Positions 7,465 through 45,334 are shown, numbered from the stretch's first letter. The stretch is DNA of 45,334 nt from a virus (IMGVR_UViG_2663763534_000006), one strand, 5' to 3'. Translations and numbers: made by a program. Notes: a model not told the origin generated them from the letters alone.

Positions 7465-7469
7465 TTGTA

Positions 7470-14887: not shown

Positions 14888-14919
14888 TATGCAATTGTTT
14901 ACTAAAAGTTATTAAAAAT

Positions 14920-15064: not shown

Positions 15065-15075
15065 CGTAAGTCAGA

Positions 15076-16584: not shown

Positions 16585-16610
16585 AAACCCGCCGTCGAGC
16601 GGGTTTTTCC
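16585..16610 (+). terminator. Intrinsic terminator upstream of lysis genes (possible tR')
   Basis: Hairpin AAACCCGCcgtcgaGCGGGTTT followed by TTCCATTTTTT, about 140 bp upstream of the holin start. Confidence 0.45.
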
Positions 16611-16746
16611 ATTTTTTGAGTCTCGATATTAGCTGATAACCCAATACCTGAGTTATTCACTGACTCCGAATCTGTTACGTTTCTGCCTTTATTGCGATAC
16701 GTAGTATCCCCTTAATTTACACCCGCTTTGTCTGCGAGGTGGGGTT

Positions 16747-16962
16747 ATGAAATCCATGGATAAGTTAACAACGGGTGTCGCCTATGGTACCTCAGCAGGT
16801 AGTGCCGGGTACTGGTTTTTACAGTTGCTCGATAAAGTCACGCCCTCACAGTGGGCGGCAATAGGTGTGCTGGGTAGCCTGGTATTTGGCCTGCTGACGT
16901 ACCTGACAAACCTTTATTTCAAGATTAAAGAAGATAAGCGCAAGGCTGCGAGAGGTGAATAA
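16747..16962 (+). CDS. S: Holin (phage-21-type pinholin, class II)
   Basis: 71-aa [32 protein letters not shown]... with dual-start MKSM motif and two TM segments; resembles S21. Confidence 0.85.
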
Positions 16963-17459
16963 TGCCTCCATCATTACGAAAAGCCGTTGCTGCTGCTATT
17001 GGTGGCGGAGCAATTGCTATAGCATCAGTGTTAATCACTGGCCCAAGTGGTAACGATGGTCTGGAAGGTGTCAGCTACATACCATACAAAGATATTGTTG
17101 GTGTATGGACTGTATGTCACGGGCATACAGGAAAAGACATCATGCTCGGTAAAACGTATACCAAAGCAGAATGCAAAGCCCTCCTGAATAAAGACCTTGC
17201 CACGGTCGCCAGACAAATTAACCCGTACATCAAAGTCGATATACCGGAAACAATGCGCGGCGCTCTTTACTCATTCGTTTACAACGTGGGTGCTGGCAAT
17301 TTCAGAACATCGACGCTTCTTCGCAAAATAAACCAGGGCGATATCAAAGGCGCATGTGATCAGCTACGTCGCTGGACATATGCTGGCGGTAAGCAATGGA
17401 AAGGTCTCATGACTCGTCGTGAGATTGAGCGTGAAATCTGTTTGTGGGGTCAGCAATGA
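16962..17459 (+). CDS. R: SAR endolysin (lysozyme)
   Basis: 165-aa ORF overlapping the holin stop; N-terminal signal-anchor-release segment ([16 protein letters not shown]) and lysozyme-like core; resembles R21. Confidence 0.9.
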
Positions 17460-17917
17460 ACAGAGTAACCGCGATTATCTCCGCTCTGGTTATCTGCATC
17501 ATCGTCTGCCTGTCATGGGCTGTTAATCATTACCGTGATAACGCCATTACCTACAAAGCCCAGCGCGACAAAAATGCCAGAGAACTGACGCTGGCGAACG
17601 CGGTAATTACTGACATACAGATGCGTCAGCGTGATGTTGCTGCGCTCGATGCAAAATACACGAAGGAGTTAGCTGATGCGAAAGCTGAAAATGATGCTCT
17701 GCGTGATGATGTTGCCGCTGGTCGTCGTCGGTTGCACATCAAAGCAGTCTGTCAGTCAGTGCGTGAAGCCACCACCGCCTCCGGCGTGGATAATGCAGCC
17801 TCCCCCCGACTGGCAGACACCGCTGAACGGGATTATTTCACCCTCAGAGAGAGGCTGATCACTATGCAAAAACAACTGGAAGGAACCCAGAAGTATATTA
17901 ATGAGCAGTGCAGATAG
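17456..17917 (+). CDS. Rz: Spanin, inner-membrane subunit
   Basis: Start [23 protein letters not shown]-coupled to R; N-terminal TM plus coiled-coil. Confidence 0.8.
17676..17858 (+). CDS. Rz1: Spanin, outer-membrane lipoprotein subunit, embedded in Rz
   Basis: 60-aa ORF in the +1 frame within Rz; lipobox LVVVGC and proline-rich segment ([18 protein letters not shown]), lambda Rz1-like. Confidence 0.7.
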
Positions 17918-17948
17918 AGCTGCCCATATCGATGGGCAACTCATGCAA

Positions 17949-18242
17949 TTATTGTGAGCAATACACACGCGCTTCCAGCGGAGTATAAATGCCTAAAGTA
18001 ATAAAACCGAGCAATCCATTTACGAATGTTTGCTGGGTTTCTGTTTTAACAACATTTTCTGCACCACCACAAATTTTTGCTGCATCGACAGTTTTCTTCT
18101 GCCCAATTCCCGAAACGAAGAAATGATGGGTGATGGTTTCCTTTGGTGTTACTGCTGTAGGTTTGTTTCCAACAGTAAACGTCTGTTGAGCACATCCTGT
18201 AATAAGCATTGCCAGAGCGGCAGAAAACAACATTTTTTTCAT
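17949..18242 (-). CDS. bor: Bor lipoprotein (serum resistance)
   Basis: Start MKKMLFSAALAMLITGC (lipobox); remainder matches lambda Bor. Confidence 0.85.
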   Translation of the reverse strand: MKKMLFSAALAMLITGCAQQTFTVGNKPTAVTPKETITHHFFVSGIGQKKTVDAAKICGGAENVVKTETQQTFVNGLLGFITLGIYTPLEARVYCSQ

Positions 18243-18722
18243 CTTATTATCCTGCATTGTTAAAAACGGCAGAATCCTATGTGACAACAATTAAACGATA
18301 GTTAAATGGATTGATGAAAATTAAAACTACACAGGTGGGCTCAGACTATTGGAGGAAGTTGGGGACACTCAGAATCCTGTGGAATGAAATAAACCGGTCT
18401 ATCCGTCCATTACCCTTTTAGCTGCGCTGTATCGTCGCCGTATTCCCGCATTAACCATGACCGTAGCCCGACGGGGAATTCCTTCTGCGTGAGTGTGCGG
18501 GAATAATTAAAAACGATGCACACCGGGTTTTTACCGCGTTAATGATTCGCGGGTTTATCCCGGTGCGATGGTGGAAGAAACAGGAAGCTGTATTACAGAA
18601 AGTGCTACTACTGTATCCCGATGCGATGTATGTAATGTGAGTCAGATAATGGCACAGGATGTGGTGATGTGGCAGTCTGGAACACAGGATATATTGTCAG
18701 AATAAGACCCGTAGGAATAAAA

Positions 18723-19049
18723 ATGAAAAGACGCCTTTTACTACTTTTTCTGTTATCTGTCCTGGCAGTGGGATGCTCGCAGCAAAAAGCTGATGAGCCC
18801 CGGCAATTAGTGACGGTGTATCCACGATATCCGGAATATGCTGCAGCAAATTATATCAAGGGGCTGGTTGAGGTTAAGTTCGATATTGGTGCTGATGGGA
18901 CTGTGACACGGATCGTTTTTCTCCGCTCAGAGCCTCATAATTTGTTTCGTGATGAAGTGGTGAAGGCCATGGCGAAATGGCGATTTGAAAAGAATCGCCC
19001 CTGTCAGGGAGTGAAGAGACAATTTATCTTTACGCCGTCACGTCCTTGA
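18723..19049 (+). CDS. Putative lipoprotein / envelope protein
   Basis: Start MKRRLLLLFLLSVLAVGC (lipobox); position corresponds to the putative envelope-protein gene right of bor in lambda. Confidence 0.6.
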   Translation: MKRRLLLLFLLSVLAVGCSQQKADEPRQLVTVYPRYPEYAAANYIKGLVEVKFDIGADGTVTRIVFLRSEPHNLFRDEVVKAMAKWRFEKNRPCQGVKRQFIFTPSRP

Positions 19050-19171
19050 TGCTTCCAGGTAGAGAGGGGCTGGAAGCAGGAGAAAAATGAAAGAGCCAGC
19101 GGTTATATTTTTGTCATGGCTGACGAGGAATGATGGAAGAAGGCGTTGTATGCCACACAACGCCTCACTGT

Positions 19172-19525
19172 TCATTTCTTCTTTTTCTCTGGTGGAACCC
19201 GATGAATAAGAGTTGCACTGGTTTCCGATGAGATGGCGATATACTCGGGCAAAGTATGCTGGCAGTTTTCCAACTGGTCAAAAATACCTGCTCTCGTCTG
19301 TTGCAATGCCTGCAGCATGCGGCGGCAATGCGCCTTGCTTTTACTAACCATCTTTCCTTCCTCTATCAGTCGCTGCGTGAACTCATCATGGAATACCAGG
19401 TAAATGCGGATGTTATCGGTTTTGGCTACGCAGCATAGTACAAAACGGACAGGTGCATCCCGGGACGGGGGAGGCGTCACATGTCCCTGTGATGGTTGTT
19501 CCGGGTAATGTACTGTGTGGGGCAT
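19172..19525 (-). CDS. Hypothetical protein (overlaps the preceding call)
   Basis: 117-aa ORF in a different frame overlapping 19413..19525; lysine-rich C-terminus; may be the C-terminal part of a frameshifted gene. Confidence 0.25.
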   Translation of the reverse strand: MPHTVHYPEQPSQGHVTPPPSRDAPVRFVLCCVAKTDNIRIYLVFHDEFTQRLIEEGKMVSKSKAHCRRMLQALQQTRAGIFDQLENCQHTLPEYIAISSETSATLIHRVPPEKKKK

Positions 19526-19664
19526 AAAAATGTCCGATAATTTTACTTTCTACCGCAGTTAGTTGATTCGTTGGTCCTGGTAGCACATTGGGCGAGGATT
19601 TAAATGCCAGGCAACTGAAGGATGATGTCGCAAGGGAGATAGCGAGAATATTTCTGATTTTCAT
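19413..19664 (-). CDS. Hypothetical secreted Cys-rich small protein
   Basis: Internal start MKIRNILAISLATSSFSCLA (signal-peptide-like); overlaps the 19172..19525 ORF, so at most one is real, or the gene is frameshifted. Confidence 0.3.
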   Translation of the reverse strand: MKIRNILAISLATSSFSCLAFKSSPNVLPGPTNQLTAVESKIIGHFYAPHSTLPGTTITGTCDASPVPGCTCPFCTMLRSQNR

Positions 19665-19779
19665 TTGATGATGCCTCTGTGTGAAATGACGGTAAACGAC
19701 GCACTTGTGCCGGCACATAATAGCAAGCACCATAATAGATCAGATTCGATTCTTGCTGTAAGTGATAATTATTCTCGTT

Positions 19780-19990
19780 TTCGGGTCCTTTCCGTCGATC
19801 CAACAGGTTACGGGGCGGCGACCTCGCGGTTTTTCACTATTTATGAAAATTTTTCAGGGAAAATCGTGTCGGTACTTCTCGAATATAACTTTTTGTTTTT
19901 TTTAATATTGCATCCGTAAAGGTCCGACATGAAAGTGTCCGAAAATGCCTTTTTCTGGCGTTTTCATGTCGGGCCTTGTATTTGATAATG
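19780..19990 (+). other. cos site (cosQ-cosN-cosB); cosN 12-nt cohesive end at 19813..19824
   Basis: GGGCGGCGACCTCGCGGTTTTTCACTATTTATGAAAATTTT closely matches the lambda cos sequence; about 180 bp upstream of the Nu1 start, as in lambda. Confidence 0.75.
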
Positions 19991-20000
19991 GGTTGTTTTC

Positions 20001-20549
20001 ATGAAGGTTAATAAAAAGAGGCTTGCCGAAATTTTCAACGTGGACCCGCGGACGATTGAACGCTGGCAGTCTCAGGGGCTCCCTTGCGTCTCCAAAGGCA
20101 GTAAGGGCATTGAATCTGTATTTGATACTGCCATGGCAATTCAGTGGTATGCGCAGAGGGAAACTGATATCGAAAACGAAAAGCTCCGCAAAGAACTGGC
20201 CGATTTGCGTGCGGCAGCGGAGTCAGATTTACAACCCGGCACCATTGACTATGAACGCTACCGGCTCACAAAAGCGCAGGCAGATGCGCAGGAACTGAAA
20301 AATGCCCGTGAAGACGGAGTGGTGCTGGAAACTGAACTGTTTACCTTCATTCTGCAACGTGTGGCACAGGAGATTTCGGGGATACTTGTGCGTGTGCCGT
20401 TGACATTACAGCGTAAATATCCGGACATTTCACCATCACACCTTGATGTGGTGAAAACTGAAATCGCGAAAGCCTCCAATGTTGCAGCTAAGGCCGGTGA
20501 AAACGTGGGCGGGTGGATCGATGATTTCAGACGCGCAGAAGGCAGCTAA
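20001..20549 (+). CDS. nu1: Terminase small subunit
   Basis: 182-aa ORF starting [28 protein letters not shown] (winged-HTH), similar to lambda Nu1. Confidence 0.9.
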
Positions 20550-22449
20550 TGCAGCCGGTGCGATAGCTACAGGGCTTTTATCTCTCATTATTCCTGTTCC
20601 ACTGACGACAGTTCAGTGGGCCAATAAACATTATTACCTTCCTAAAGAGTCGTCTTATACCCCGGGGCGATGGGAAACACTGCCGTTTCAGGTTGGCATC
20701 ATGAACTGTATGGGCAACGATCTGATTCGCACGGTTAACCTGATTAAATCTGCCCGTGTTGGTTATACAAAGATGTTGCTGGGAGTGGAGGCTTATTTTA
20801 TTGAGCATAAATCACGCAACAGCCTTCTTTTTCAGCCCACGGACTCAGCTGCTGAAGATTTTATGAAATCTCATGTTGAGCCAACGATAAGGGATGTTCC
20901 TGCATTGCTGGAGCTGGCTCCATGGTTCGGAAGAAAACACCGCGATAATACGCTCACCCTGAAGCGTTTTTCCTCCGGTGTGGGGTTCTGGTGTCTGGGT
21001 GGTGCGGCAGCAAAAAACTACCGTGAAAAATCCGTGGATGTGGTCTGTTATGACGAGCTTTCCTCGTTCGAACCGGATGTTGAAAAAGAGGGTTCGCCAA
21101 CCCTGCTGGGGGATAAACGTATTGAGGGCTCTGTATGGCCAAAATCCATTCGCGGCTCGACGCCTAAAATCAAAGGCTCCTGCCAGATCGAAAAAGCCGC
21201 TAACGAGTCGGCACACTTCATGCGTTTTTATGTGCCCTGTCCGCACTGTGGGGAGGAGCAGTATCTGAAATTTGGCGATGATGCCTCGCCTTTCGGTCTT
21301 AAGTGGGAGAAGAATAAGCCAGAAAGTGTTTTCTACCTTTGTGAGCATCATGGCTGTGTGATCCATCAGTCTGAGCTTGACCAGAGTAACGGGCGGTGGA
21401 TCTGTGAAAACACGGGCATGTGGACCCGTGACGGCCTGATGTTTTTCAGCGCCCGGGGTGATGAAATTCCGCCGCCGCGCTCCATCACTTTCCATATCTG
21501 GACGGCGTACAGTCCGTTCACCACCTGGGTACAGATTGTCTATGACTGGCTGGATGCACTGAAAGATCCCAACGGCCTGAAAACCTTTGTGAACACCACG
21601 CTGGGCGAGACCTGGGAAGAGGCTGTGGGCGAAAAACTCGATCACCAGGTGCTGATGGATAAGGTTGTGCGTTACACGGCGGCGGTGCCTGCCCGGGTGG
21701 TTTATCTGACGGCGGGCATTGACTCGCAGCGAAACCGTTTTGAGATGTATGTCTGGGGATGGGCTCCGGGAGAGGAAGCCTTTCTGGTGGATAAAATCAT
21801 CATTATGGGGCGTCCCGATGAGGAAGAGACGCTGTTACGTGTGGATGCGGCGATCAACAAAAAATACCGCCATGCAGACGGAACCGAAATGACCATTTCC
21901 CGTGTCTGCTGGGACATCGGGGGGATCGATGGCGAAATCGTTTATCAGAGGTCAAAAAAACACGGTGTTTTCCGGGTGCTGCCGGTAAAAGGCGCATCTG
22001 TCTATGGCAAGCCGGTGATCACCATGCCAAAAACCCGCAATCAGCGGGGCGTGTATCTGTGTGAAGTGGGGACGGACACCGCAAAAGAAATTCTCTATGC
22101 CCGTATGAAAGCCGATCCCACGCCTGTGGATGAAGCCACGTCGTATGCTATCCGTTTTCCTGATGATCCGGAGATTTTTTCGCAGACAGAGGCGCAGCAA
22201 CTGGTCGCGGAAGAGCTTGTGGAGAAGTGGGAAAAAGGAAAGATGCGTCTGCTGTGGGATAACAAAAAGCGGCGTAACGAAGCGCTGGACTGCCTGGTGT
22301 ATGCCTACGCGGCATTACGTGTGTCCGTGCAACGCTGGCAGCTTGATCTGGCTGTACTGGCAAAATCCCGGGAAGAAGAGACGACCCGGCCAACCCTTAA
22401 AGAACTGGCAGCGAAGCTGTCCGGAGGAGTGAATGGTTACAGTCGCTGA
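20521..22449 (+). CDS. A: Terminase large subunit
   Basis: Start at the ATG overlapping the Nu1 3' end; strong similarity to lambda gpA along its length (e.g. [32 protein letters not shown]). Confidence 0.95.
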
Positions 22450-22639
22450 ACTGCAGGCGCTGCGTCAGGCGCGCCTTGATTTATTAACCGGTAAACGGGT
22501 GGTGTCTGTCCAGAAAGATGGTCGCAGAATTGAATATACGGCGGCTTCTCTGGATGAGCTTAACCGGGCGATCAATGATGCGGAGTCGGTACTGGGGACA
22601 ACCCGGTGTCGCCGTCGTCCGCTGGGAGTGAGGTTATGA
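22433..22639 (+). CDS. W: Head-tail joining protein W
   Basis: 68-aa ORF with LLTGKRVVSVQKDGRRIEYTAASLDEL, lambda gpW-like. Confidence 0.8.
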   Translation: MVTVAELQALRQARLDLLTGKRVVSVQKDGRRIEYTAASLDELNRAINDAESVLGTTRCRRRPLGVRL

Positions 22640-24228
22640 AACGAACGCCTGTCCTGATTGATGTGAACGGCGTTCCGCTTCGTGAGAGTCTCAGCTACAA
22701 CGGGGGCGGTGCAGGATTTGGCGGGCAAATGGCTGAGTGGTTGCCACCGGCGCAGAGTGCCGATGCGGCCCTGCTGCCCGCGTTGCGTCTGGGGAATGCC
22801 CGGGCAGATGATCTGGTGCGCAATAACGGAATAGCGGCTAATGCGGTGGCTCTGCATAAGGATCACATTGTCGGGCATATGTTTCTGATCAGCTACCGTC
22901 CGAACTGGCGCTGGCTGGGGATGCGGGAGACCGCAGCAAAAAGCTTTGTCGATGAGGTGGAGGCGGCCTGGTCGGAATACGCCGAAGGGATGTTTGGCGA
23001 GATCGACGTGGAAGGAAAACGCACGTTCACGGAATTTATCCGTGAAGGTGTGGGCGTTCATGCGTTTAACGGCGAAATCTTTGTGCAGCCGGTCTGGGAT
23101 ACGGAAACCACGCAGTTATTCCGTACGCGTTTTAAAGCCGTGAGTCCGAAACGGGTGGACACGCCTGGACACGGTATGGGGAACCGTTTTCTGCGGGCCG
23201 GTGTGGAGGTCGATCGATATGGCCGTGCCGTCGCGTACCATATCTGTGAGGATGATTTTCCGTTCTCTGGTAGTGGACGATGGGAACGGATCCCGCGTGA
23301 ACTTCCCACTGGGCGTCCGGCCATGCTGCATATTTTCGAGCCGGTGGAGGACGGGCAGACCCGTGGGGCTAATCAGTTTTACAGCGTCATGGAACGGCTG
23401 AAGATGCTCGATTCCCTGCAGGCAACACAGCTTCAGTCGGCCATAGTGAAGGCGATGTATGCAGCGACGATTGAAAGTGAACTTGATACCGAAAAGGCCT
23501 TTGAATATATCGCCGGCGCGCCACAGGAGCAGAAGGATAATCCGCTTATTAATATTCTGGAGAAGTTTTCCAGCTGGTATGACACGAATAACGTGACACT
23601 GGGCGGTGTCAAAATTCCGCACCTTTTCCCTGGTGATGATCTGAAACTACAGACTGCGCAGGATTCAGACAATGGATTTTCTGCGCTTGAACAGGCGCTG
23701 CTGCGGTATATCGCCGCCGGTCTTGGCGTTTCCTACGAACAGTTGTCCCGTGATTACTCGAAGGTCAGTTACTCAAGTGCCCGCGCCTCCGCCAATGAGT
23801 CGTGGCGCTATTTTATGGGGCGGCGAAAATTTATTGCGGCCCGGCTGGCCACGCAGATGTTTTCCTGCTGGCTGGAAGAGGCACTTCTTCGGGGGATTAT
23901 TCGTCCGCCACGGGCACGTTTTGATTTTTATCAGGCGCGATCAGCCTGGTCACGGGCAGAGTGGATTGGTGCCGGAAGAATGGCCATTGACGGGCTCAAG
24001 GAAGTCCAGGAATCAGTGATGCGCATTGAGGCCGGACTGAGCACGTATGAGAAAGAGCTGGCGCTGATGGGCGAGGATTATCAGGACATTTTCCGCCAGC
24101 AGGTCAGGGAATCTGCTGAGCGGCAAAAAGCCGGACTCTCACGTCCGGTGTGGATAGAGCAGGCGTATCAGCAGCAGATAGCGGAGAGTCGTAGGCCGGA
24201 AGAGGAGACAACACCACGTGAGACGTAA
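22636..24228 (+). CDS. B: Portal protein
   Basis: Start MKRTPVLIDV, ATGA-coupled to W; extensive similarity to lambda gpB. Confidence 0.95.
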   Translation: MKRTPVLIDVNGVPLRESLSYNGGGAGFGGQMAEWLPPAQSADAALLPALRLGNARADDLVRNNGIAANAVALHKDHIVGHMFLISYRPNWRWLGMRETAAKSFVDEVEAAWSEYAEGMFGEIDVEGKRTFTEFIREGVGVHAFNGEIFVQPVWDTETTQLFRTRFKAVSPKRVDTPGHGMGNRFLRAGVEVDRYGRAVAYHICEDDFPFSGSGRWERIPRELPTGRPAMLHIFEPVEDGQTRGANQFYSVMERLKMLDSLQATQLQSAIVKAMYAATIESELDTEKAFEYIAGAPQEQKDNPLINILEKFSSWYDTNNVTLGGVKIPHLFPGDDLKLQTAQDSDNGFSALEQALLRYIAAGLGVSYEQLSRDYSKVSYSSARASANESWRYFMGRRKFIAARLATQMFSCWLEEALLRGIIRPPRARFDFYQARSAWSRAEWIGAGRMAIDGLKEVQESVMRIEAGLSTYEKELALMGEDYQDIFRQQVRESAERQKAGLSRPVWIEQAYQQQIAESRRPEEETTPRET

Positions 24229-25723
24229 TCTTTCACACATTATTGCCGCAGCATTCAATGAACCGCTGCTTCTGGAGCCCGCCTATGCGCGGGTTTTCTT
24301 TTGCGCGCTCGGGCGCGAGATGGGGGCAGCAAGTCTTTCGGTACCACAACAGCAGGTACAGTTTGATGCTCCCGGAATGCTGGCTGAAACGGACGAGTAC
24401 ATGGCCGGAGGTAAACGACCGGCCCGTGTTTACCGGGTGGTGAACGGTATTGCTGTACTGCCGGTGACCGGCACGCTGGTGCACCGGCTGGGTGGTATGC
24501 GGCCATTTTCCGGAATGACAGGCTATGACGGCATTGTCGCCTGTCTTCAGCAGGCAATGGCGGATAGCCAGGTGCGGGGCGTACTGCTGGACATTGACAG
24601 TCCGGGCGGGCAGGCCGCCGGCGCGTTTGACTGCGCTGACATGATTTACCGCCTCCGTCAGCAGAAGCCGGTCTGGGCACTGTGCAATGACACGGCCTGT
24701 TCTGCAGCCATGCTGCTGGCGTCGGCCTGCTCCCGACGGCTGGTTACCCAGACATCCCGTATCGGCTCCATTGGCGTGATGATGAGCCATGTCAGCTATG
24801 CCGGTCATCTGGCGCAGGCCGGTGTGGATATCACGCTGATTTACTCAGGGGCGCACAAGGTGGATGGCAATCAGTTTGAAGCGTTGCCGGCAGAGGTTCG
24901 CCAGGACATGCAGCAGCGGATTGATGCGGCGCGCCGGATGTTTGCCGAAAAAGTGGCGATGTATACCGGTCTGTCTGTTGATGCCGTCACGGGAACAGAG
25001 GCTGCCGTTTTTGAAGGTCAGTCCGGCATTGAGGCCGGGCTGGCGGATGAATTAATCAATGCGTCGGATGCCATCAGTGTGATGGCCACGGCGCTGAACA
25101 GTAATGTCAGAGGAGGCACTATGCCGCAATTAACTGCAACGGAAGCCGCCGCGCAGGAGAACCAGCGAGTGATGGGGATCCTGACATGCCAGGAAGCGAA
25201 AGGACGTGAACAGCTTGCCACGATGCTGGCAGGACAACAGGGCATGAGCGTTGAACAGGCCCGGGCGATTCTGGCCGCGGCGGCACCGCAGCAGCCGGTG
25301 GCATCCACGCAGAGTGAAGCCGATCGCATTATGGTGTGTGAAGAAGCGAACGGTCGTGAACAACTGGCGGCAACGCTGGCGGCGATGCCGGAGATGACGG
25401 TGGAAAAAGCCCGCCCGATCCTGGCTGCTTCACCGCAGGCGGATGCCGGACCATCACTCCGTGATCAGATCATGGCACTGGATGAGGCAAAAGGGGCTGA
25501 GGCGCAGGCTGAACAGCTGGCTGCCTGCCCGGGAATGACAGTGGAGAGCGCCCGGGCTGTGCTGGCTGCGGGATCAGGTAAGGCAGAACCGGTCTCTGCA
25601 TCCACAACCGCCATGTTTGAACATTTCATGGCGAACCATTCACCGGCAGCGGTACAGGGTGGCGTGGCACAGACGTCAGCAGACGGTGATGCGGACGTGA
25701 AAATGCTCATGGCCATGCCATGA
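24218..25723 (+). CDS. C: Head maturation protease / scaffold (S49 peptidase family; Nu3-like C-terminal region)
   Basis: 501-aa ORF starting MRRNLSHIIAAAFNEPLLLEPAYARVFFCALG, lambda gpC-like; C-terminal region carries three tandem about 35-aa repeats. Confidence 0.9.
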   Translation: MRRNLSHIIAAAFNEPLLLEPAYARVFFCALGREMGAASLSVPQQQVQFDAPGMLAETDEYMAGGKRPARVYRVVNGIAVLPVTGTLVHRLGGMRPFSGMTGYDGIVACLQQAMADSQVRGVLLDIDSPGGQAAGAFDCADMIYRLRQQKPVWALCNDTACSAAMLLASACSRRLVTQTSRIGSIGVMMSHVSYAGHLAQAGVDITLIYSGAHKVDGNQFEALPAEVRQDMQQRIDAARRMFAEKVAMYTGLSVDAVTGTEAAVFEGQSGIEAGLADELINASDAISVMATALNSNVRGGTMPQLTATEAAAQENQRVMGILTCQEAKGREQLATMLAGQQGMSVEQARAILAAAAPQQPVASTQSEADRIMVCEEANGREQLAATLAAMPEMTVEKARPILAASPQADAGPSLRDQIMALDEAKGAEAQAEQLAACPGMTVESARAVLAAGSGKAEPVSASTTAMFEHFMANHSPAAVQGGVAQTSADGDADVKMLMAMP

Positions 25724-25759
25724 AGTCAGTGCTGACCATCAATAGGAGGTTTTTACAAT

Positions 25760-26107
25760 ATGGTGACGAAAACCATCACTGAACAGCGTGCGGAAGTACG
25801 TATTTTTGCCGGTAATGATCCGGCTCATACCGCCACAGGCAGCAGCGGGATTTCCTCGCCAACACCGGCACTGACGCCCCTGATGCTGGATGAAGCCACC
25901 GGGAAACTGGTGGTCTGGGACGGACAGAAAGCCGGTAGTGCGGTTGGCATACTGGTACTGCCGCTTGAAGGCACAGAGACGGCGCTGACGTATTACAAGT
26001 CGGGAACCTTTGCGACGGAGGCAATCCACTGGCCTGAAAGTGTGGATGAACACAAAAAGGCCAACGCCTTTGCTGGCAGTGCCCTGAGTCACGCGGCGCT
26101 GCCGTAA
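25760..26107 (+). CDS. D: Head decoration protein D
   Basis: 115-aa ORF with DPAHTAT...TPLMLD...FYKSGTF pattern of lambda gpD. Confidence 0.85.
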   Translation: MVTKTITEQRAEVRIFAGNDPAHTATGSSGISSPTPALTPLMLDEATGKLVVWDGQKAGSAVGILVLPLEGTETALTYYKSGTFATEAIHWPESVDEHKKANAFAGSALSHAALP

Positions 26108-26164
26108 CACGTTATCAGGCCACCGCGGTGGCCTGACTGATTTCTGAATGAAAGGAACTGATTT

Positions 26165-27193
26165 ATGGGATTGTTTACGACCCGCCAGTTACTCGGTTAT
26201 ACCGAACAAAAAGTTAAATTTCGTGCGCTGTTTCTGGAGCTGTTTTTCCGCCGTACGGTGAATTTCCATACCGAAGAGGTGATGCTGGACAAAATTACCG
26301 GAAAAACGCCGGTGGCGGCCTATGTCTCCCCGGTTGTTGAAGGAAAAGTGCTGCGTCATCGTGGTGGTGAAACCCGCGTGTTGCGTCCGGGCTACGTCAA
26401 GCCGAAACACGAATTTAATTACCAGCAGGCGGTTGAGCGCCTTCCTGGTGAAGATCCATCTCAACTGAATGATCCGGCTTACCGCCGTCTGCGTATCATT
26501 ACCGATAACCTCAAACAGGAAGAGCACGCGATTGTCCAGGTGGAAGAAATGCAGGCGGTAAATGCTGTGTTGTATGGCAAATACACCATGGAAGGAGACC
26601 AGTTCGAGAAAATTGAGGTCGATTTTGGCAGGTCGACGAAGAATAACATCACTCAGGGTAGTGGTAAGGAGTGGTCAAAACAGGATCGTGACACGTTCGA
26701 TCCTACACATGATATTGACCTCTACTGCGACCTGGCCAGCGGTCTTGTGAATATTGCCATTATGGACGGTACCGTCTGGCGTCTTCTGAATGGTTTTAAG
26801 CTGTTCCGCGAAAAACTGGATACCCGTCGCGGTTCAAATTCTCAACTCGAAACGGCAGTGAAAGATCTGGGCGCAGTGGTGTCCTTCAAGGGGTATTACG
26901 GCGATCTGGCCATTGTGGTGGCGAAAACGTCTTATATAGCAGAAGACGGTATCGAAAAACGTTATCTTCCAGATGGCATGCTGGTTCTGGGGAATACTGC
27001 TGCAGATGGGATCCGTTGTTACGGTGCCATTCAGGATGCTCAGGCGTTGTCCGAAGGTGTGGTGGCCTCTTCCCGTTATCCGAAACACTGGCTGACGGTA
27101 GGGGATCCCGCCCGTGAATTTACCATGACGCAGTCCGCGCCGCTGATGGTGTTGCCGGACCCGGATGAGTTTGTGGTGGTACAGGTGAAATAA
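26165..27193 (+). CDS. E: Major capsid protein E
   Basis: 342-aa ORF with strong similarity to lambda gpE (e.g. GYVKPKHE, TRRGSNS-LETAVKDLG, GDPAREFTM-QSAPLM). Confidence 0.95.
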   Translation: MGLFTTRQLLGYTEQKVKFRALFLELFFRRTVNFHTEEVMLDKITGKTPVAAYVSPVVEGKVLRHRGGETRVLRPGYVKPKHEFNYQQAVERLPGEDPSQLNDPAYRRLRIITDNLKQEEHAIVQVEEMQAVNAVLYGKYTMEGDQFEKIEVDFGRSTKNNITQGSGKEWSKQDRDTFDPTHDIDLYCDLASGLVNIAIMDGTVWRLLNGFKLFREKLDTRRGSNSQLETAVKDLGAVVSFKGYYGDLAIVVAKTSYIAEDGIEKRYLPDGMLVLGNTAADGIRCYGAIQDAQALSEGVVASSRYPKHWLTVGDPAREFTMTQSAPLMVLPDPDEFVVVQVK

Positions 27194-27202
27194 TCCGTGA
27201 GC

Positions 27203-27230
27203 GGGGGCGAAATGCCCCCGTGTCTTTTTT
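27203..27230 (+). terminator. Intrinsic terminator/attenuator after E
   Basis: Hairpin GGGGGCgaaatGCCCCC followed by GTGTCTTTTTT. Confidence 0.4.
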
Positions 27231-27244
27231 CACAGGGGGCTGAT

Positions 27245-27619
27245 ATGGCAACGAAAGAGCAAAATCTGAAACGGCTTGATGAACTGGCCCTGATTCTGGG
27301 GCGTGAGCCGGATATATCCGGGAGTGCCGCAGAGATAGCGCAGCGGGTGGCAGAATGGGAAGAGGAAATGCAGTCATCCGGCGATGATGTACAGGTTATG
27401 AATATGGATATCCGGGAGCGGGAAACCGCGGCTCATGATGTTCGTGAGGAAACATCCGGCGCGTTAACGCGCATCAGAGTTCTGACCTGCCTCCATCTCT
27501 GTGGCGTTGATGGTGAAACGGGGGAATCCGTTGAGCTTGCGGATGTTGGTCGGGTGATTCTGATTATGTCCTCAGATGCAAAAACACACGTTGATGGTGG
27601 AATGGCTGTTTATGCGTGA
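27245..27619 (+). CDS. FI: DNA packaging protein FI
   Basis: Start MATKEQNLKRLDEL; position and size as lambda FI. Confidence 0.75.
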   Translation: MATKEQNLKRLDELALILGREPDISGSAAEIAQRVAEWEEEMQSSGDDVQVMNMDIRERETAAHDVREETSGALTRIRVLTCLHLCGVDGETGESVELADVGRVILIMSSDAKTHVDGGMAVYA

Positions 27620-27965
27620 TTTTCAGAATGCCTTTGATGCCGCCCTTGCCGGGGTGGACAGTACGATTGTTGAAGTGATGGGCATCAGTGCGCAGTTCAC
27701 CTCCGGTGCACAGCGTGGCGGCGAGGTTCATGGCGTTTTTGACGATCCGGAGTCGCTGGGTTTTGCCAGTAGTGGGATCCGTATTGAAGGAAGTAACCCG
27801 TCATTATTTGTGCTTACGGATACGGTTTGTGCTGTACGGCGTGGTGACACGCTGACCATTAACGGCGAGATGTTCTGGGTGGACCGTGTTTCTCCGGATG
27901 ACGGAGGGAGTTGTTATCTCTGGCTCAACCGGGGGCAACCACCTGCCGCCAGCCGTCGCCGCTGA
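27612..27965 (+). CDS. FII: Head-tail connector FII
   Basis: Start MRDFQNAFDAALAGV overlapping the FI stop; C-terminal DRVSPDDGGSCYLWL matches lambda FII. Confidence 0.85.
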   Translation: MRDFQNAFDAALAGVDSTIVEVMGISAQFTSGAQRGGEVHGVFDDPESLGFASSGIRIEGSNPSLFVLTDTVCAVRRGDTLTINGEMFWVDRVSPDDGGSCYLWLNRGQPPAASRRR

Positions 27966-27976
27966 AAGGGGGATGT

Positions 27977-28555
27977 ATGGCCATAAAAGGTCTTGAGCAG
28001 GCCGTTGAAAACCTCAGCCGTATCAGCAAAACGGCAGTGCCTGGTGCCGCCGCAATGGCCATTAACCGCGTTGCTTCATCCGCGATATCGCAGTCGGCGT
28101 CACTGGTTGCCCGTGAGACAAAGGTACGCCGGAAACTGGTAAAGGAAAGGGCCAGGCTGAAAAGGGCCACGGTCAAAAATCCGCAGGCCAGAATCAAAGT
28201 TAACCGGGGGGATTTGCCCGTAATCAGGCTGGGTAACGCGCGGGTTGTCCTGTCCCGACGCAGGCGTCGTAAAAAGGGGCAGCGTTCATCCCTGAAAGGT
28301 GGCGGCAGCGTGCTTGTGGTGGGAAACCGTCGTATTCCCGGCGCGTTTATTCAGCAACTGAAAAATGGCCGGTGGCATGTCATGCAGCGTGTGGCCGGGA
28401 AAAACCGTTACCCCATTGATGTGGTGAAAATCCCGATGGCGGTGCCGCTGACCACGGCGTTTAAACAGAATATTGAGCGGATACGGCGTGAGCGTCTTCC
28501 GAAAGAGCTGGGCTATGCGCTGCAGCATCAACTGAGAATGGTAATAAAGCGATGA
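27977..28555 (+). CDS. Z: Tail completion protein Z
   Basis: Start MAIKGLEQAVENLSRISKTAVPGAAAMAINRVASSA; translation matches lambda gpZ. Confidence 0.9.
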   Translation: MAIKGLEQAVENLSRISKTAVPGAAAMAINRVASSAISQSASLVARETKVRRKLVKERARLKRATVKNPQARIKVNRGDLPVIRLGNARVVLSRRRRRKKGQRSSLKGGGSVLVVGNRRIPGAFIQQLKNGRWHVMQRVAGKNRYPIDVVKIPMAVPLTTAFKQNIERIRRERLPKELGYALQHQLRMVIKR

Positions 28556-28806
28556 AACATACTGAACTCCGTGCAGCCGTACTGGATGCACTGGAGAAGC
28601 ATGACACCGGGGCGACGCTTTTTGATGGTCGCCCTGCTGTTTTTGATGAGGAAGATTTTCCGGCAATTGCCGTTTATCTCACCGGCGCTGAATACACGGG
28701 CGAAGAGCTGGACAGCGATACCTGGCAGGCGGAGCTGCATATTGAAGTTTTCCTGCCTGCTCAGGTGCCGGATTCAGAGCTGGATTCGTGGATGGAGTCC
28801 CGGATT
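28552..28806 (+). CDS. U: Tail terminator protein U (3' end lost in N-run)
   Basis: MKHTELRAAVLDALEKHDTGATLFDGRP... matches lambda gpU; ORF runs into the N-run starting at 28807. Confidence 0.8.
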
Positions 28807-28993
28807 NNNNNNNNNNNNNNNNNNNNNNNNNNNNNNNNNNNNNNNNNNNNNNNNNNNNNNNNNNNNNNNNNNNNNNNNNNNNNNNNNNNNNNNNNNNNNN
28901 NNNNNNNNNNNNNNNNNNNNNNNNNNNNNNNNNNNNNNNNNNNNNNNNNNNNNNNNNNNNNNNNNNNNNNNNNNNNNNNNNNNNNNNNNNNNN
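28807..28993. other. Run of 187 N (unresolved or masked sequence) across the U/V junction
   Basis: Literal n characters in the sequence; too short to hold the expected missing U 3' end plus V 5' end. Confidence 0.99.
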
Positions 28994-29392
28994 GGCACGG
29001 TCGATGTGTTCCGTGGCTGGGTCAGCAGTATCGGTAAGGCGGTGACGGCGAAGGAAGTGATCACCCGTACGGTGAAGGTCACCAATGTGGGCCGTCCGTC
29101 AATGGCAGAAGATCGCAGTACGGTGACGGCGGCAACCGGTATGACCGTGACGCCTGCCAGCTCCTCGGTGGTGAAAGGGCAGAGCACCACGCTGACCGTG
29201 GCCTTCCAGCCGGAGGGCGCAACTGACAAGAGCTTCCGTGCGGTGTCAGCGGATAAAACAAAAGCCACCGTGTCGGTCAGTGGTATGACCATCACCGTGA
29301 ACGGCGTTGCTGCAGGCAAGGTCAACATTCCGGTTGTATCCGGTAATGGTGAACTTGCTGCGGTTGCAGAAATCACTGTCACCGACAGTTAA
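28994..29392 (+). CDS. V: Major tail protein V (C-terminal portion incl. Ig-like domain; 5' end in N-run)
   Basis: [56 protein letters not shown]... matches the lambda gpV C-terminal region. Confidence 0.8.
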
Positions 29393-29407
29393 TCCGGAGA
29401 GTCAGCG

Positions 29408-29830
29408 ATGTTCCTGAAAACCGAATCATTTGAACATAACGGCGTGACCGTCACGCTTTCTGAACTGTCAGCCCTGCAGCGTATTGAGCATCTCGCCCTG
29501 ATGAAACAGCAGGCAGAACAGGCGGAGTCAGACAGCAACCGGCAGGTTACTGTGGAAGACGCCATCAGAACCGGTGCTTTTGTGGTGGCGATGTCCCTGT
29601 GGCATAACCATCCGCAGAAGACAAAGCAGCCTTCCATGAATGAAGCCGTTAAACAGATTGAGCAGGAAGTGCTTACCACCTGGCCCGCGGAGGCAATTTC
29701 TCATGCTGAAAACGTGGTGTACCGGCTGTCCGGTATGTATGGGTTTGTGGTGAATGATGCCCCTGACCAGGCAGAGGACTCCGGGCCTGCAGAGCCTGTT
29801 TCTGCGGGAAAGTGTTCGACGGTGAGCTGA
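29408..29830 (+). CDS. G: Tail assembly chaperone G
   Basis: 140-aa ORF MFLKTESFEHNGVTVTLSELSALQRIEHL, lambda gpG-like. Confidence 0.85.
   Translation: MFLKTESFEHNGVTVTLSELSALQRIEHLALMKQQAEQAESDSNRQVTVEDAIRTGAFVVAMSLWHNHPQKTKQPSMNEAVKQIEQEVLTTWPAEAISHAENVVYRLSGMYGFVVNDAPDQAEDSGPAEPVSAGKCSTVS
29806..29812 (+). other. Programmed -1 frameshift slippery site (G GGA AAG) for the G-T fusion
   Basis: Heptamer GGGAAAG near the 3' end of G; the T frame continues open to 30246. Confidence 0.6.
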
Positions 29831-30246
29831 GTTTTGCCCTGAAACTGGCGCGAGAGATGGGGCGACCTGACTGGCGCGCCATGCTTGCCGGGATGTCATC
29901 CACGGAGTATGCCGACTGGCACCGCTTTTACAGTACCCATTATTTTCATGATGTTCTGCTGGATATGCACTTTTCCGGGCTGACGTACACTGTGCTCAGC
30001 CTGTTTTTCAGCGATCCGGATATGCATCCGCTGGATTTCAGTTTGCTGAACCGGCGTGAGGATGACGAAGAGCCTGAAGATGATGTGCTGATGCAGAAAG
30101 CGGCAGGGCTTGCCGGAGGCGTCCGCTTTGCCCCGGACGGAAATGAAGTTATCCCCGCTTCCCCGGATATGGCGGGCATGACGGAGGATGACGTAATGCT
30201 GATGACAGTATCAGAAGGGATCGCAGGAGGAGTCCGGTATGGCTGA
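29812..30246 (+). CDS. T: Tail assembly protein T frame (expressed as G-T fusion)
   Basis: -1 frame ORF overlapping the G 3' end, lambda gpT-like. Confidence 0.75.
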   Translation: MFDGELSFALKLAREMGRPDWRAMLAGMSSTEYADWHRFYSTHYFHDVLLDMHFSGLTYTVLSLFFSDPDMHPLDFSLLNRREDDEEPEDDVLMQKAAGLAGGVRFAPDGNEVIPASPDMAGMTEDDVMLMTVSEGIAGGVRYG

Positions 30247-32381
30247 ACCGGTAGGCGATCTGGTCGTTGATTTAAGTCTGGATGCGGCCAGATTTGACGA
30301 GCAGATGGCCAGAGTCAGGCGTCATTTTTCCGGTACGGAAAGTGATGCGAAAAAAACAGCGGCAGTCGTTGAACAGTCGNNNNNNNNNNNNNNNNNNNNN
30401 NNNNNNNNNNNNNNNNNNNNNNNNNNNNNNNNNNNNNNNNNNNNNNNNNNNNNNNNNNNNNNNNNNNNNNNNNNNNNNNNNNNNNNNNNNNNNNNNNNNN
30501 NNNNNNNNNNNNNNNNNNNNNNNNNNNNNNNNNNNNAAGGACTCCTTCGGCGGGATGATCCCCATGTTCCGGGGGCTTGCCGGTGCGATCACCCTGCCGA
30601 TGGTCGGGGCCACCTCGCTGGCGGTGGCGACCGGTGCGCTGGCGTATGCCTGGTATCAGGGNNNNNNNNNNNNNNNNNNNNNNNNNNNNNNNNNNNNNNN
30701 NNNNNNNNNNNNNNNNNNNNNNNNNNNNNNNNNNNNNNNNNNNNNNNNNNNNNNNNNNNNNNNNNNNNNNNNNNNNNNNNNNNNNNNNNNNNNNNNNNNN
30801 NNNNNNNNNNNNNNNNNNNNNNNNNCCGGGGCATTGCAGGCGGCGAACGAGGCCGCAACGAAAGGGTTTGATGACCAGACCCGACGCCTGAAAGAGAACA
30901 TGGGCACGCTGGAAACCTGGGCAGACAGGACAGCACGGGCATTCAAATCCATGTGGGATGCGGTGCTGGATATTGGTCGTCCTGATACCGCTCAGGAGAT
31001 GCTGATTAAGGCAGAGGCTGCGTTTAAGAAAGCGGACGACATCTGGAATCTGCGCAAGGATGATTATTTTGTTAACGATGAAGCGCGGGCGCGTTACTGG
31101 GATGACCGTGAAAAGGCCCGTCTTGCGCTTAAAGCCGCCCGAAAGAAGGCTGAACAGCAGAGTCAACAGGACAAAAATGCGCAGCAGCAGAGCGATACCG
31201 AAGCGTCACGGCTGAAATATACCGAAGAGGCGCAGAAGGCTTACAAACGGCTGCAGACGCCGCTGGAGAAATATACCGCCCGTCAGGAAGAACTGAACAA
31301 GGCACTGAAAGACGGGAAAATCCTGCAGGCGGATTACAACACGCTGATGGCGGCGGCGAAAAAGGATTATGAAGCGACGCTGAAAAAGCCGAAACAGTCC
31401 GGCGTGAAGGTGTCTGCGGGCGATCGTCAGGAAGACAGTGCTCATGCTGCCCTGCTGACGCTTCAGGCAGAACTCCGGACGCTGGAGAAGCATGCCGGAG
31501 CGAATGAGAAAATCAGCCAGCAGCGCCGGGATTTGTGGAAGGCAGAAAGTCAGTTCGCGGTACTGGAGGAGGCGGCACAACGTCGCCAGCTGTCCGCACA
31601 GGAGAAATCCCTGCTGGCGCATAAAGATGAGACGCTGGAGTACAAACGCCAGCTGGCTGCACTTGGCGACAAGGTTACGTATCAGGAGCGCCTGAACGCG
31701 CTGGCGCAGCAGGCGGATAAATTCGCACAGCAGCAACGGGCAAAACGGGCCGCNNNNNNNNNNNNNNNNNNNNNNNNNNNNNNNNNNNNNNNNNNNNNNN
31801 NNNNNNNNCAGAATATGGCGGCGATGCTGACCGGCAGTGAACAGAACTGGCGCAGCTTCACCCGTTCCGTGCTGTCCATGATGACAGAAATTCTGCTTAA
31901 GCAGGCAATGGTGGGGATTGTCGGGAGTATCGGCAGCGCCATTGGCGGGGCTGTTGGTGGCGGCGCATCCGCGTCAGGCGGTACAGCCATTCAGGCCGCT
32001 GCGGCGAAATTCCATTTTGCAACCGGAGGATTCACAGGAACCGGCGGCAAATATGAGCCAGCGGGGATTGTTCACCGTGGTGAATTTGTCTTCACGAAGG
32101 AGGCAACCAGCCGGATTGGCGTGGGGAATCTCTACCGGCTGATGCGCGGCTATGCCACCGGCGGTTATGTCGGTGGCACCGGAAGTCCGGCGCAAATGCG
32201 GCGTTCAGAGGGTATCAGGTTTGAGCAGAACAACAACGTGGTGATTCAGAACGACGGTACGAATGGTCTGCCAGGTCCACAGATGATGAAGGCGGTGTAT
32301 GACATGGCCCGCAAGGGTGCCCGTGATGAAATCCAGGCACAGATGCGCGATGGTGGTCTGTTCTCCGGAGGTGGACGATGA
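30239..32381 (+). CDS. H: Tail tape measure protein H (interrupted by three N-runs)
   Basis: Starts MAEPVGDLVVDLSLDAARFDEQMARVRRHFSGTESDAKK and ends ...MRDGGLFSGGGR, matching lambda gpH; N-runs at 30380-30536, 30662-30825 and 31754-31808; the frame changes across the first. Confidence 0.85.
30380..30536. other. Run of 157 N inside H
   Basis: Literal n characters; length not a multiple of 3 and the reading frame differs on either side. Confidence 0.99.
30662..30825. other. Run of 164 N inside H
   Basis: Literal n characters. Confidence 0.99.
31754..31808. other. Run of 55 N inside H
   Basis: Literal n characters. Confidence 0.99.
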
Positions 32382-43040: not shown

Positions 43041-43173
43041 AAAAAGGTGAGCTGTATATGCAACGGAGGAAGAAACCCCGTTGCTGGAAGCCTGGAAAAA
43101 GTATCGGGTGTTGTTGAATCGTGTTGATACATCACTATCTCCAGATATCGAGTGGCCAAGTCAACCATAAATC

Positions 43174-43200
43174 AATATCCCCTGCGATGCAGGGGATATT
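43174..43200. repeat. Perfect 12-bp inverted repeat with 3-nt spacer, downstream of sopB
   Basis: AATATCCCCTGC gat GCAGGGGATATT, followed on the plus strand by TCTTAATT; candidate bidirectional terminator or partition-protein binding site. Confidence 0.5.
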
Positions 43201-43202
43201 TC

Positions 43203-44168
43203 TTAATTATCAGTAGATTGTTCCTCTAGTAACAACTCAATTCTGCTTAGTATTTCTTTAGATATTTTTCGGCTATCAATTTTTATAGTTACAAAATTAC
43301 CTTTATATCTAGCCGTGATCCCTTCCCCATATTTTTTCTCGTCTTTTGTTTTTTCCTCGTCGCCAACCAGAACAGAGTCAGATAATATTTGTATAATCCG
43401 TGAAGCTTCTAAATCCTCGCCGTTTTTTTTAATTGCCAGAAGATGATGAGCAGCATTGCTCATGGCAGCCATGTTTTTTTTGTAGACCTTAAACAAAGAA
43501 TCTCCAGCACGAGCTGACAGTTCTCCTGGATGATTGAAGATAGCTAATATATCTTTTGGTAGACCAGCTGTATTAATACAGCGAGTGATAATATTTCTGT
43601 CTATATTTTCAGCCTCGGCTAATGCTTTAACGTTACCATCAAAGTCATTTAGCTTGCGTAAGTATCTCTTTCCTCTTTCGTATGCACTAATAGGCCTATA
43701 ATCGTTACCAATTTGGGATAACCAATGCATCTGTTCATCGTCGAGATCACCTATTAAGACGCGATAGTCACATCCTGTTAATATCGCTGCTTTTCTTCTA
43801 CGTGAGCCGTCAGCGACTTCAACGACTCCAGACACTTTTCTGGCGAAAGCTGGATTTTGTTGTCCAGACGTTAGAAAAGATGGGATTAAATCGGCTAGAG
43901 AGGATTCATTTAATAAATCTTGATCGCGTTCATTACCTAGCCATACCATTGTTGCCATTTCAACTTTATCTGCGGGAATTGTCTCTAACTTAAAGTTAAC
44001 ATTACGTCCGCATACTGGCAAAGTTATGCTGTTACCGGTTAATGAACTCAGTTGACGTTTTAAATCACCAACCATAGGTGATACGGGCTGATGTTCAGGG
44101 GCATGATGATTATTACTCATAATGCGATTAATATCTGGAGCATTTTTTAGAAGAGAGCGCTGTTTCAT
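43203..44168 (-). CDS. sopB: ParB-type partition protein (F-plasmid SopB-like)
   Basis: 321-aa ORF with ITLPVCGR...WLGNERDQ...SGVVEVADGSRRRKAA...ITRCINTA segments matching F SopB by recall; co-directional with and downstream of sopA. Confidence 0.85.
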   Translation of the reverse strand: MKQRSLLKNAPDINRIMSNNHHAPEHQPVSPMVGDLKRQLSSLTGNSITLPVCGRNVNFKLETIPADKVEMATMVWLGNERDQDLLNESSLADLIPSFLTSGQQNPAFARKVSGVVEVADGSRRRKAAILTGCDYRVLIGDLDDEQMHWLSQIGNDYRPISAYERGKRYLRKLNDFDGNVKALAEAENIDRNIITRCINTAGLPKDILAIFNHPGELSARAGDSLFKVYKKNMAAMSNAAHHLLAIKKNGEDLEASRIIQILSDSVLVGDEEKTKDEKKYGEGITARYKGNFVTIKIDSRKISKEILSRIELLLEEQSTDN

Positions 44169-45334
44169 TATTCGTTCTCCCAGCGAGGTTTTATTAGATC
44201 ATCAAAAATTTCTCGGCAAACAGGGTCCCATATAGAAACAGCATTTCTCCATGCATTCAATGTTGAACGTTGGTTTGCTGCTTGTTCAAATACTGTTCTC
44301 ATTTTTATCTGGCCTTTACCTACTTCATCGGTAACGCGTACAACCTGACGTAATACCATTGATCCCCATGTATTTCTTATTTGTTCTTCCATCCATCGTG
44401 ATTGATTCCCTGTAGTGAGACTATATTTAGTCAGAAGTAAGCGAACGGTTGGCTCAAATCCACCTAGGTCAACGCTTTCCAATAGATCGAGAAGCATTGT
44501 GAAAAACTGTAGAACAGAAGCGTAATCAAATAATTCTGCAGGTGTAGCAACAACAATAACGTCAGCGGCACAAACAACGTTAATGGTTCCTGTACCGAGG
44601 TTCGGAGCACTATCTATAACGATAACATCGTAGTTATCCCAAACTGATTCAATAGCTGCGCGCAGCATAAGGTGTGGAGGATGAGGCAATTTACCCTGAG
44701 CATGATATTGCATGAGATCTGTTTCTATACGATGTAAAGCTAGGCAGCTAGGGATAATGTCTAGCCCAGGCCAACATGTTGGCTTTATAGCATATTCAGC
44801 GTTATCGCGTTCTCCTAAGTAAAATGGCAGTAAAGTATCCTCGGCATGGATATGTAAATCAGGAACATAACCGTGATACATAGAGGCCGTGCCTTGAGGA
44901 TCGTTACCTTCAACCAAAAGAACACGATGACCTTGTAATGCTAACCATTGAGCTTGATGTACCGCAGACGATGTTTTATAAACACCGCCTTTGTGTGACA
45001 TAACGGCAAGCACAACAGGGTTTTTATCTTGTGGTCGTTGGTTTGGGTTGCCAAAAACTGCTCGCATACTGTTGATTTGATCTATGGTATAACCAGCACG
45101 ACGTTCAATTCTTCCTCTCATTTCAAAGTCAGGTGCAGGTAAACGCCCGCTCTTCTCAGCATCTCTAATTGCTTGAGGAGTTACACCAATTAAATCTGCT
45201 ACTTCAGTTATACCCCATCGGCGGGTGATACGCCGAGCTTCAGGACTATCATCACCGAATTGAGCGATAGCAATTGCTTGGGTCATTTCTTGACCTCTCG
45301 TAACACAATCTTGCAATAACTTTTTCAAAGACAT
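44168..45334 (-). CDS. sopA: ParA-type partition ATPase (F-plasmid SopA-like)
   Basis: 388-aa ORF with deviant Walker A KGGVYKTS and long F SopA-like stretches (LLVEGNDPQGTASMYHG, IKPTCWPGLDIIPSCLALHRIET, YDVIVIDSAPNLG); start codon is the last 3 nt of the window. Confidence 0.9.
   Translation of the reverse strand: MSLKKLLQDCVTRGQEMTQAIAIAQFGDDSPEARRITRRWGITEVADLIGVTPQAIRDAEKSGRLPAPDFEMRGRIERRAGYTIDQINSMRAVFGNPNQRPQDKNPVVLAVMSHKGGVYKTSSAVHQAQWLALQGHRVLLVEGNDPQGTASMYHGYVPDLHIHAEDTLLPFYLGERDNAEYAIKPTCWPGLDIIPSCLALHRIETDLMQYHAQGKLPHPPHLMLRAAIESVWDNYDVIVIDSAPNLGTGTINVVCAADVIVVATPAELFDYASVLQFFTMLLDLLESVDLGGFEPTVRLLLTKYSLTTGNQSRWMEEQIRNTWGSMVLRQVVRVTDEVGKGQIKMRTVFEQAANQRSTLNAWRNAVSIWDPVCREIFDDLIKPRWENE

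Follow-up and report, generated by a model that had tools for sequence, protein, structure and literature searches.

Two characterised partition systems, those of the linear plasmid-prophage N15 and of the F plasmid, are the closest described relatives of a pair of genes, sopA and sopB, at the right end of IMGVR_UViG_2663763534_000006, a viral DNA stretch of 45,334 nucleotides (the whole of which is referred to here as the window). In N15 the system (Sop, genes 27 and 28) works with the centromere sites IR1–IR4, and the sites bound by SopB are 18-bp inverted repeats, GTGCGACCNNGGTCGCAC (PMC7205306). The F system (SopABC or ParABS-F, type Ia) has a tandem sopC array 3' of sopB with the core site TGGGACCNNGGTCCCA. 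A preliminary description of the window placed sopA and sopB at the right end of an integrase-bearing lambdoid prophage, while rightly naming N15 as the type of element in which such genes belong. Our analysis indicates, with a probability of roughly 0.9, that sopAB belongs, as the partition operon, to an N15-like linear plasmid-prophage in Escherichia coli strain SN5, a separate replicon that was mis-joined during assembly to a prophage integrated at icd.

SopA and SopB compared with the N15 and F systems

The open reading frames (ORFs) of sopA and sopB are intact and form one operon, with sopB directly downstream of sopA and a one-base overlap at the junction TAATG; the coordinates, minus-strand orientation and overlap reported previously are thereby confirmed. 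SopA carries the deviant Walker A motif KGGVYKT at residues 115–121 (class pattern KGGxxK[ST]) and SopB the ParB arginine patch GSRRRKA at residues 121–127. SopA matches the NCBIfam SopA equivalog NF010259 over its full length (734 bits; cut-off 725), and SopB matches both the SopB-type equivalog NF010252 (408 bits; cut-off 274) and the Pfam domain PF18090 (SoPB_HTH) above its cut-off. Residues 42–68 of SopA give a weak match to a MerR-type helix–turn–helix (HTH). The pair has the composition of a type Ia ParABS system: a ParA with an N-terminal DNA-binding extension and a ParB partner with an arginine patch and an HTH. The earlier recognition of a ParA ATPase with a deviant Walker A motif and of a ParB protein, both related to SopA and SopB of F, holds, and the degenerate ORFs that it had allowed for were not found, the Walker A motif being intact. 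The two genes are real and intact and are part of the already characterised N15/F-type Sop system.

SopA and SopB of the window are 93% and 73% identical to those of N15 and 74% and 50% identical to those of F, respectively; by this measure of sequence the nearest characterised relative is N15 and not F. The likeness to N15 extends to the order of tail fibre, terminator, sopB, sopA, approximately 460–490 bases, telomere and telN, to the telO core, and to the 18-bp centromere motif, which lies on the other arm in relatives with identical SopA. The element that carries the sopAB of the window differs from N15 in having lambda-type J, lom and stf genes and not N15-type tail-tip genes, in the lower GC content of sopAB (40.5% versus 48.9%) and in a SopB that is 21 residues shorter at the C-terminus; its relatives have five to six centromere sites, whereas N15 has four. 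With F it shares the length of SopA (388 residues in both), the one-base overlap of the operon and a Walker A lysine that aligns at position 120, whereas the tandem array found 3' of sopB in F is absent and the centromere sites of this sop family are dispersed and of N15 specificity.

The closest relatives are N15-like phage-plasmids of E. coli with lambda-like tails, represented by pAH01-1 (NZ_CP055252), pG749_3 (NZ_CP014491), the MARGA_3 plasmid (unnamed2) and phage PhiR46_1 (PV340565). These encode a protelomerase and a CyRepA1-type RepA, and their sopAB shows no substantive difference from that of the window; they differ in the stf allele, and the left part of the window is an unrelated prophage. 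Protelomerase and N15-type RepA, both of which are absent from the window, occur together in pAH01-1, in the MARGA_3 plasmid and at two further loci (L009 and L012), all with a SopA identical to that of the window. SopA is also identical in the phage-plasmids L001, L003, L005, L010 and L017, and SopB is identical to that of L017 and L010. Across nine plasmid records from complete genomes the sopAB DNA is 99.1–99.9% identical and SopA is identical, and an index of the public collection lists exactly this SopA in 6510 blocks. The GC content of sopAB is indeed low compared with the head and tail genes of the window (55–57%), as noted before. However, every identical plasmid copy has the same low GC content, and it therefore characterises the sop module itself and is no sign that the prophage acquired it recently.

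The window is a scaffold joined across gaps

The source of the window was found by an exact-protein look-up with its J protein. The window corresponds to bases 91086–136419 of scaffold LFXU01000036.1 (136,875 bases), with an identical gap structure, and positions 24784–45334 are 100% identical, gaps included, in a comparison with the last 21,007 bases of that scaffold. The parent record LFXU00000000 is a draft genome of the E. coli sequence type 131 (ST131) strain SN5, for which Illumina HiSeq reads were assembled in CLC Genomics Workbench 7.5 (PMC4551883).

Four runs of N (28807–28993, 30380–30536, 30662–30825 and 31754–31808; 563 N in total), overlooked in the preliminary description, lie in the tail genes between the integrase part and the sop part. 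From the way in which the program works, these would be scaffolding gaps introduced by the CLC assembler. Short-read assemblers are expected to break at long exact repeats, and it is at the longest exact repeats (149–248 bp) common to the prophage-type and plasmid-type tail genes that the first three gaps lie. The fourth merely abuts such a repeat, with no exact run of 60 bp or more there in the comparison of prophage and plasmid. Scored in windows of 300–500 bases, the sequence matches the prophage at 100% until the gaps are reached and at 94–99% thereafter, whereas phage-plasmids match it at 96% to the left of the gaps and at 100% to the right. The window does not represent a single contiguous element; int and sopAB are adjacent in the text string only.

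To the left of the gaps, the lambda-type tyrosine integrase reported previously is present on the minus strand at positions 1–1143 (domain search). Positions 1–28806 and 28994–30379 are 99.85% identical to a prophage of IHE3034 (from 1284563 onward) that lies immediately beside icd, and the 125-bp island at 30537–30661 matches the icd prophage exactly. This prophage is present in 195 of 5426 complete E. coli genomes and is of a type found in extraintestinal pathogenic E. coli strains. The IHE3034 copy terminates with stf, sitABCD and an icd' duplicate. As the scaffold changes to plasmid sequence, the window lacks the sitABCD cargo that usually occupies the right end of this prophage.

To the right of the gaps, positions 31809–38408 are 99.97% identical (two mismatches in 6600) and positions 42609–45334 are 100% identical to L017, a gap-free 46.5-kb phage-plasmid contig in which a protelomerase gene lies next to sopA and in which SopA, SopB and J are identical to those of the window. 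Setting the source scaffold aside, every contig found with the exact J protein was of the phage-plasmid type. No complete genome or PLSDB plasmid covers positions 20001–45000 at 80% or above.

The sequence beyond sopA and the sopA operator

Scaffold LFXU01000036.1 stops 456 bases beyond the sopA start codon, with the sequence ...CCCATTATACG, one base short of the centre of a palindrome (hairpin). Six independent assemblies that read through the hairpin show a perfect inverted duplication with its centre 456–459 bases upstream of the sopA start codon; in L010 the centre is at 457, in the sequence CCCATTATACGC|GCGTATAATGGG. Two further phage-plasmid contigs, L019 and L020, also stop approximately 20 bases short of the hairpin centre. 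The sequence at the scaffold end is the telO core of N15, as found in N15 telRL, and the cut site of N15 itself lies 487 bases from its sopA. The DNA beyond sopA is therefore a physical end, namely the telR hairpin of a linear plasmid-prophage, and neither an attR site nor chromosomal sequence.

The 456 bases between sopA and the telomere, which lie outside the window, also hold the sopA operator. In the source scaffold CTTTGC hexamers are located upstream of sopA at -99 and -80, with inverted copies at -46 and -27, an arrangement as in F and N15; the hexamers of the F plasmid are at -100, -81, -62 and -28, so that those at -99, -80 and (inverted) -27 compare with -100, -81 and -28. The preliminary description had looked to the sequence past the window end for both the operator and attR; the operator is there, and attR is not, its place being taken by the hairpin telomere.

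Search for a cognate centromere

The N15 motif GTGCGACCNNGGTCGCAC and the F sopC core TGGGACCNNGGTCCCA each gave no match in the window with up to three mismatches allowed. In agreement with the previous account, a repeat search revealed no sopC-like tandem array after sopB, and the tandem and dispersed repeats around sopAB comprise only pairs at chance level and a terminator hairpin. A cognate centromere in cis on the same replicon was thus not found within the window. Copies of GTGCGACCNNGGTCGCAC are present on the repA/early arm of N15 (four), pAH01-1 (six) and the MARGA_3 plasmid (five). The centromere is missing from the window because the N15-type SopB sites lie on the other plasmid arm, and sopAB without cis sites is the result expected if the window holds only the telR arm of the plasmid.

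A perfect 12-bp inverted repeat beside sopB, which had been noted before as the only structured element there, was considered as a possible dispersed centromere and rejected, as it is present as a single copy per plasmid, always after sopB. Exactly one copy per sop module, always just after sopB, was found in all relatives, with no further copies in the 47-kb plasmids. A terminator scan calls the hairpin on both strands, and N15 has an annotated terminator stem-loop at the matching position after sopB. Sequence and position give the palindrome the appearance of a bidirectional terminator at a point where transcription units converge.

Distribution of sopAB and anomalous records

Of the 5426 complete E. 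coli genomes, 15 have matches to sopAB; these lie at 21 places on plasmids and at two on a chromosome, and the plasmid records that carry them are 14.5–75 kb in size, most being approximately 46 kb. Both chromosome places are in one record, YDC107, and none of the 195 genomes with the icd prophage has sopAB on its chromosome.

The YDC107 record (NZ_CP025707.1; positions 1–68000 and 5178000–5198311; loci L006, L026 and L027) is labelled as a complete circular chromosome. It starts with a frameshift-ridden inverted duplication round the hairpin (tail genes, sopBA, hairpin, sopAB, tail genes), which is followed by head genes running into a prophage at the Qin site; the end of the record falls within the head genes of this same prophage. 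No protelomerase gene was found in the YDC107 assembly. A natural linear chromosome was considered for this strain and rejected, since without a protelomerase such a chromosome would not be maintainable. The chromosomal sopAB of YDC107 looks like a phage-plasmid arm that was fused into the chromosome by the assembler. Locus L012 (GCA_964019885.1, CAXHUB010000001.1, 3768034–3789200) is an N15-like segment with Q, cro, cB, repA, telN, sopAB and tail genes, situated within approximately 45 kb of the end of a 3.81-Mb contig; it is likely to be another join of a phage-plasmid and a chromosomal contig.

Several plasmid records labelled circular are 50–92 kb in size, larger than the unit of approximately 46–47 kb, and have two sopAB matches; examples are NZ_CP014491.1 (62.5 kb), NZ_LT906558.1 (61.5 kb), NZ_CP126957.1 (68 kb) and NZ_CP019258.1 (75 kb). 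The duplications of pG749_3 (NZ_CP014491.1) and of metagenome contigs (loci L007–L016) are perfect and inverted, with a centre approximately 457 bases upstream of sopA. These inverted sopAB copies are artefacts of reading through the hairpin of a linear replicon. Two further records encode protelomerase with no sopAB match in their assemblies, namely NZ_CP031108.1 (AMSCJX02; 27.2 kb, protelomerase twice) and NZ_JBRAXZ010000005.1 (PEC011; 36 kb), and they seem to be partial assemblies of this phage-plasmid family that hold the telL arm only.

The lambda-like early region of the window also has 96.6% matches in two 48,499-bp 'plasmids', NZ_CP068597.1 (Paenibacillus sonchi) and NZ_CP104294.1 (Stenotrophomonas maltophilia), which contain lambda genes such as rexA, bet and P. 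The genome of phage lambda is approximately 48.5 kb in length. Both records are probably lambda control DNA deposited as plasmids.

Origin of the join and alternative explanations

The join is best accounted for if the short-read assembly attached the telR-proximal arm of the plasmid to the chromosomal, icd-integrated lambdoid prophage. The lambda-type tail genes of the plasmid and the prophage are approximately 95–99% identical, and the assembler would have broken at the stretches that are identical in both, after which the scaffolder would have threaded the prophage contigs into the plasmid contigs across the N gaps. By analogy with the N15 and F systems described in the literature, SopB would bind and load at the dispersed 18-bp inverted-repeat sites on the other plasmid arm, nucleoid-bound SopA-ATP would position the SopB–DNA complexes such that both daughter cells inherit a copy, and SopA, with SopB as co-repressor, would repress its own promoter through the CTTTGC hexamers near the telomere.

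Several points weigh against this explanation. The physical separation of the two replicons in SN5 is inferred from assembled sequence, and the rest of each element, namely the telN/repA arm of the plasmid and the prophage's own right arm with J, stf, sitABCD and attR, is presumed to be elsewhere in the SN5 assembly. The stf cluster at 38409–42608, which comprises the lom-distal part, stf and the tail-fibre accessory genes, moreover lies between segments of 100% plasmid type, yet its 100% matches are in chromosomal lambdoid prophages, and its stf allele is not on any PLSDB plasmid, no such plasmid matching positions 38300–45334 above 97.6%. The cluster may be a natural tail-fibre mosaic or a second mis-threading; the verdict on sopAB is unaffected either way.

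The second of these possibilities amounts to a three-way chimera, in which a further chromosomal lambdoid prophage of SN5, as the third element, supplied the stf cluster, and only positions 31809–38408 and 42609–45334 derive from the plasmid. We regard this as unlikely, yet as the strongest of the alternatives. In addition to the exact chromosomal matches, the identity of the cluster to the loaded plasmids is only 76–99%, with no match in one 300-bp window (40509–40808), the flanks of approximately 300 bp at both switches are identical in the two element types, and the exact Stf protein is common in chromosomal contexts. However, there are no N runs at either switch, and shuffling of tail-fibre alleles is natural; the same stf C-terminal 49-mer stands next to sopAB in a phage-plasmid contig from IMG/VR, so that such alleles do occur on phage-plasmids.

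A second alternative is that the scaffold is correct and that a crossover in the tape-measure region fused the icd prophage with the linear phage-plasmid, giving a linear chromosome, perhaps in a subpopulation, with N15-type hairpin telomeres and with sopAB at one chromosome end. A real crossover between prophage and plasmid would look identical in a short-read assembly, the scaffolder did find read pairs linking the contigs across the N gaps, and the long near-identical tail genes of the two elements could recombine. Engineered E. coli with a chromosome linearised at the N15 tos site is reportedly viable. Read pairs within collapsed repeats nevertheless link to both copies and so do not show which flank belongs to which element. 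No complete genome shows a fusion of this kind, the sole apparent case being YDC107, which lacks a protelomerase gene. With icd well away from the terminus, and with a prior for a scaffolding error at a repeat that is far higher, we consider the fusion very improbable.

The least probable explanation of all is that of the preliminary description, namely that sopAB is cargo in the b region of an integrating lambdoid phage (a plasmid lifestyle, incompatibility against F or the remnant of a neighbouring integrated element) with attR beyond it: int and sopAB do stand on one string in the order of prophage genes, but four N runs interrupt that string at the switch in sequence type, beyond sopA a telomere half-site closes the scaffold with neither attR nor chromosome, the window has no cognate centromere site, the same prophage in 195 complete genomes ends with stf and sitABCD instead, and the arrangement does not recur, chromosomal sopAB being found in one of 5426 genomes (YDC107). 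What that description had named as its own refutation, a plasmid fragment joined to the prophage by assembly, is what the gaps, the identity switch at the gaps and the hairpin telomere at the scaffold end point to, with sopAB belonging to the linear plasmid-prophage.

Other features of the window

The positions of the features are collected in Table 1. In the prophage part, identity to the IHE3034 annotation locates a porin gene annotated ompC at 15076–16218 and the serum-survival lipoprotein gene iss at 17949–18242, both on the minus strand. Within stf, positions 39529–39966 consist of a 189-bp unit repeated 2.3 times (85% matches) that encodes Ala/Ser/Thr-rich repeats of the KTSETNAK type, and several of the chromosomal copies of the stf cluster adjoin a Dus-family gene and pspG. 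Positions 43041–43157 have matches in many lambdoid phages, at the 3' ends of their tfa genes, and plasmid L005 has an annotated incomplete tfa at the position equivalent to the remnant listed in Table 1.

Table 1. Location of the main features in the window, counted from its first base.
Feature	Position	Strand	Content
icd-prophage part	1..30661		Left and central prophage: int, xis, exo, bet, cI-like repressor, O, P, Q, lysis, head and proximal tail genes
Gap block	28807..31808		Four N runs with short contigs between them; the switch from prophage to plasmid falls here
Phage-plasmid arm	31809..43040	plus	3' end of tape-measure gene, M, L, K, I, J, lom, stf, tail-fibre accessory genes
tfa remnant	43060..43170	plus	3' remnant of tail-fibre assembly gene
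Hairpin	43174..43200	both	12-bp stem, 3-nt loop, T-rich tail on each strand; lies where the tail-fibre genes and sopB converge
sopB	43203..44168	minus	321 aa; ParB-family centromere-binding protein; GSRRRKA patch and SopB HTH domain
sopA	44168..45334	minus	388 aa; type Ia ParA partition ATPase; N-terminal HTH region

Implications

The surprising combination of a prophage with partition genes is almost certainly a scaffolding artefact. Were the fusion real, it would mean that the circular chromosome of SN5 had been made linear and capped by phage hairpin telomeres. The broader caution is that N15-like linear phage-plasmids and chromosomal prophages have long, near-identical lambda-type head and tail genes in common, and that short-read scaffolds, and even long-read assemblies deposited as 'complete', fuse the two, duplicate them round the hairpin or describe them as circular, with the consequence that the output of prophage callers includes hybrid 'prophages' with plasmid partition genes. 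The artefact has a recognisable signature, consisting of N runs in the tail genes, a contig that stops at CCCATTATACG, approximately 456 bases past sopA, and inverted duplications with their centre at that point, and its recognition avoids false claims of integrating phages that carry plasmid modules.

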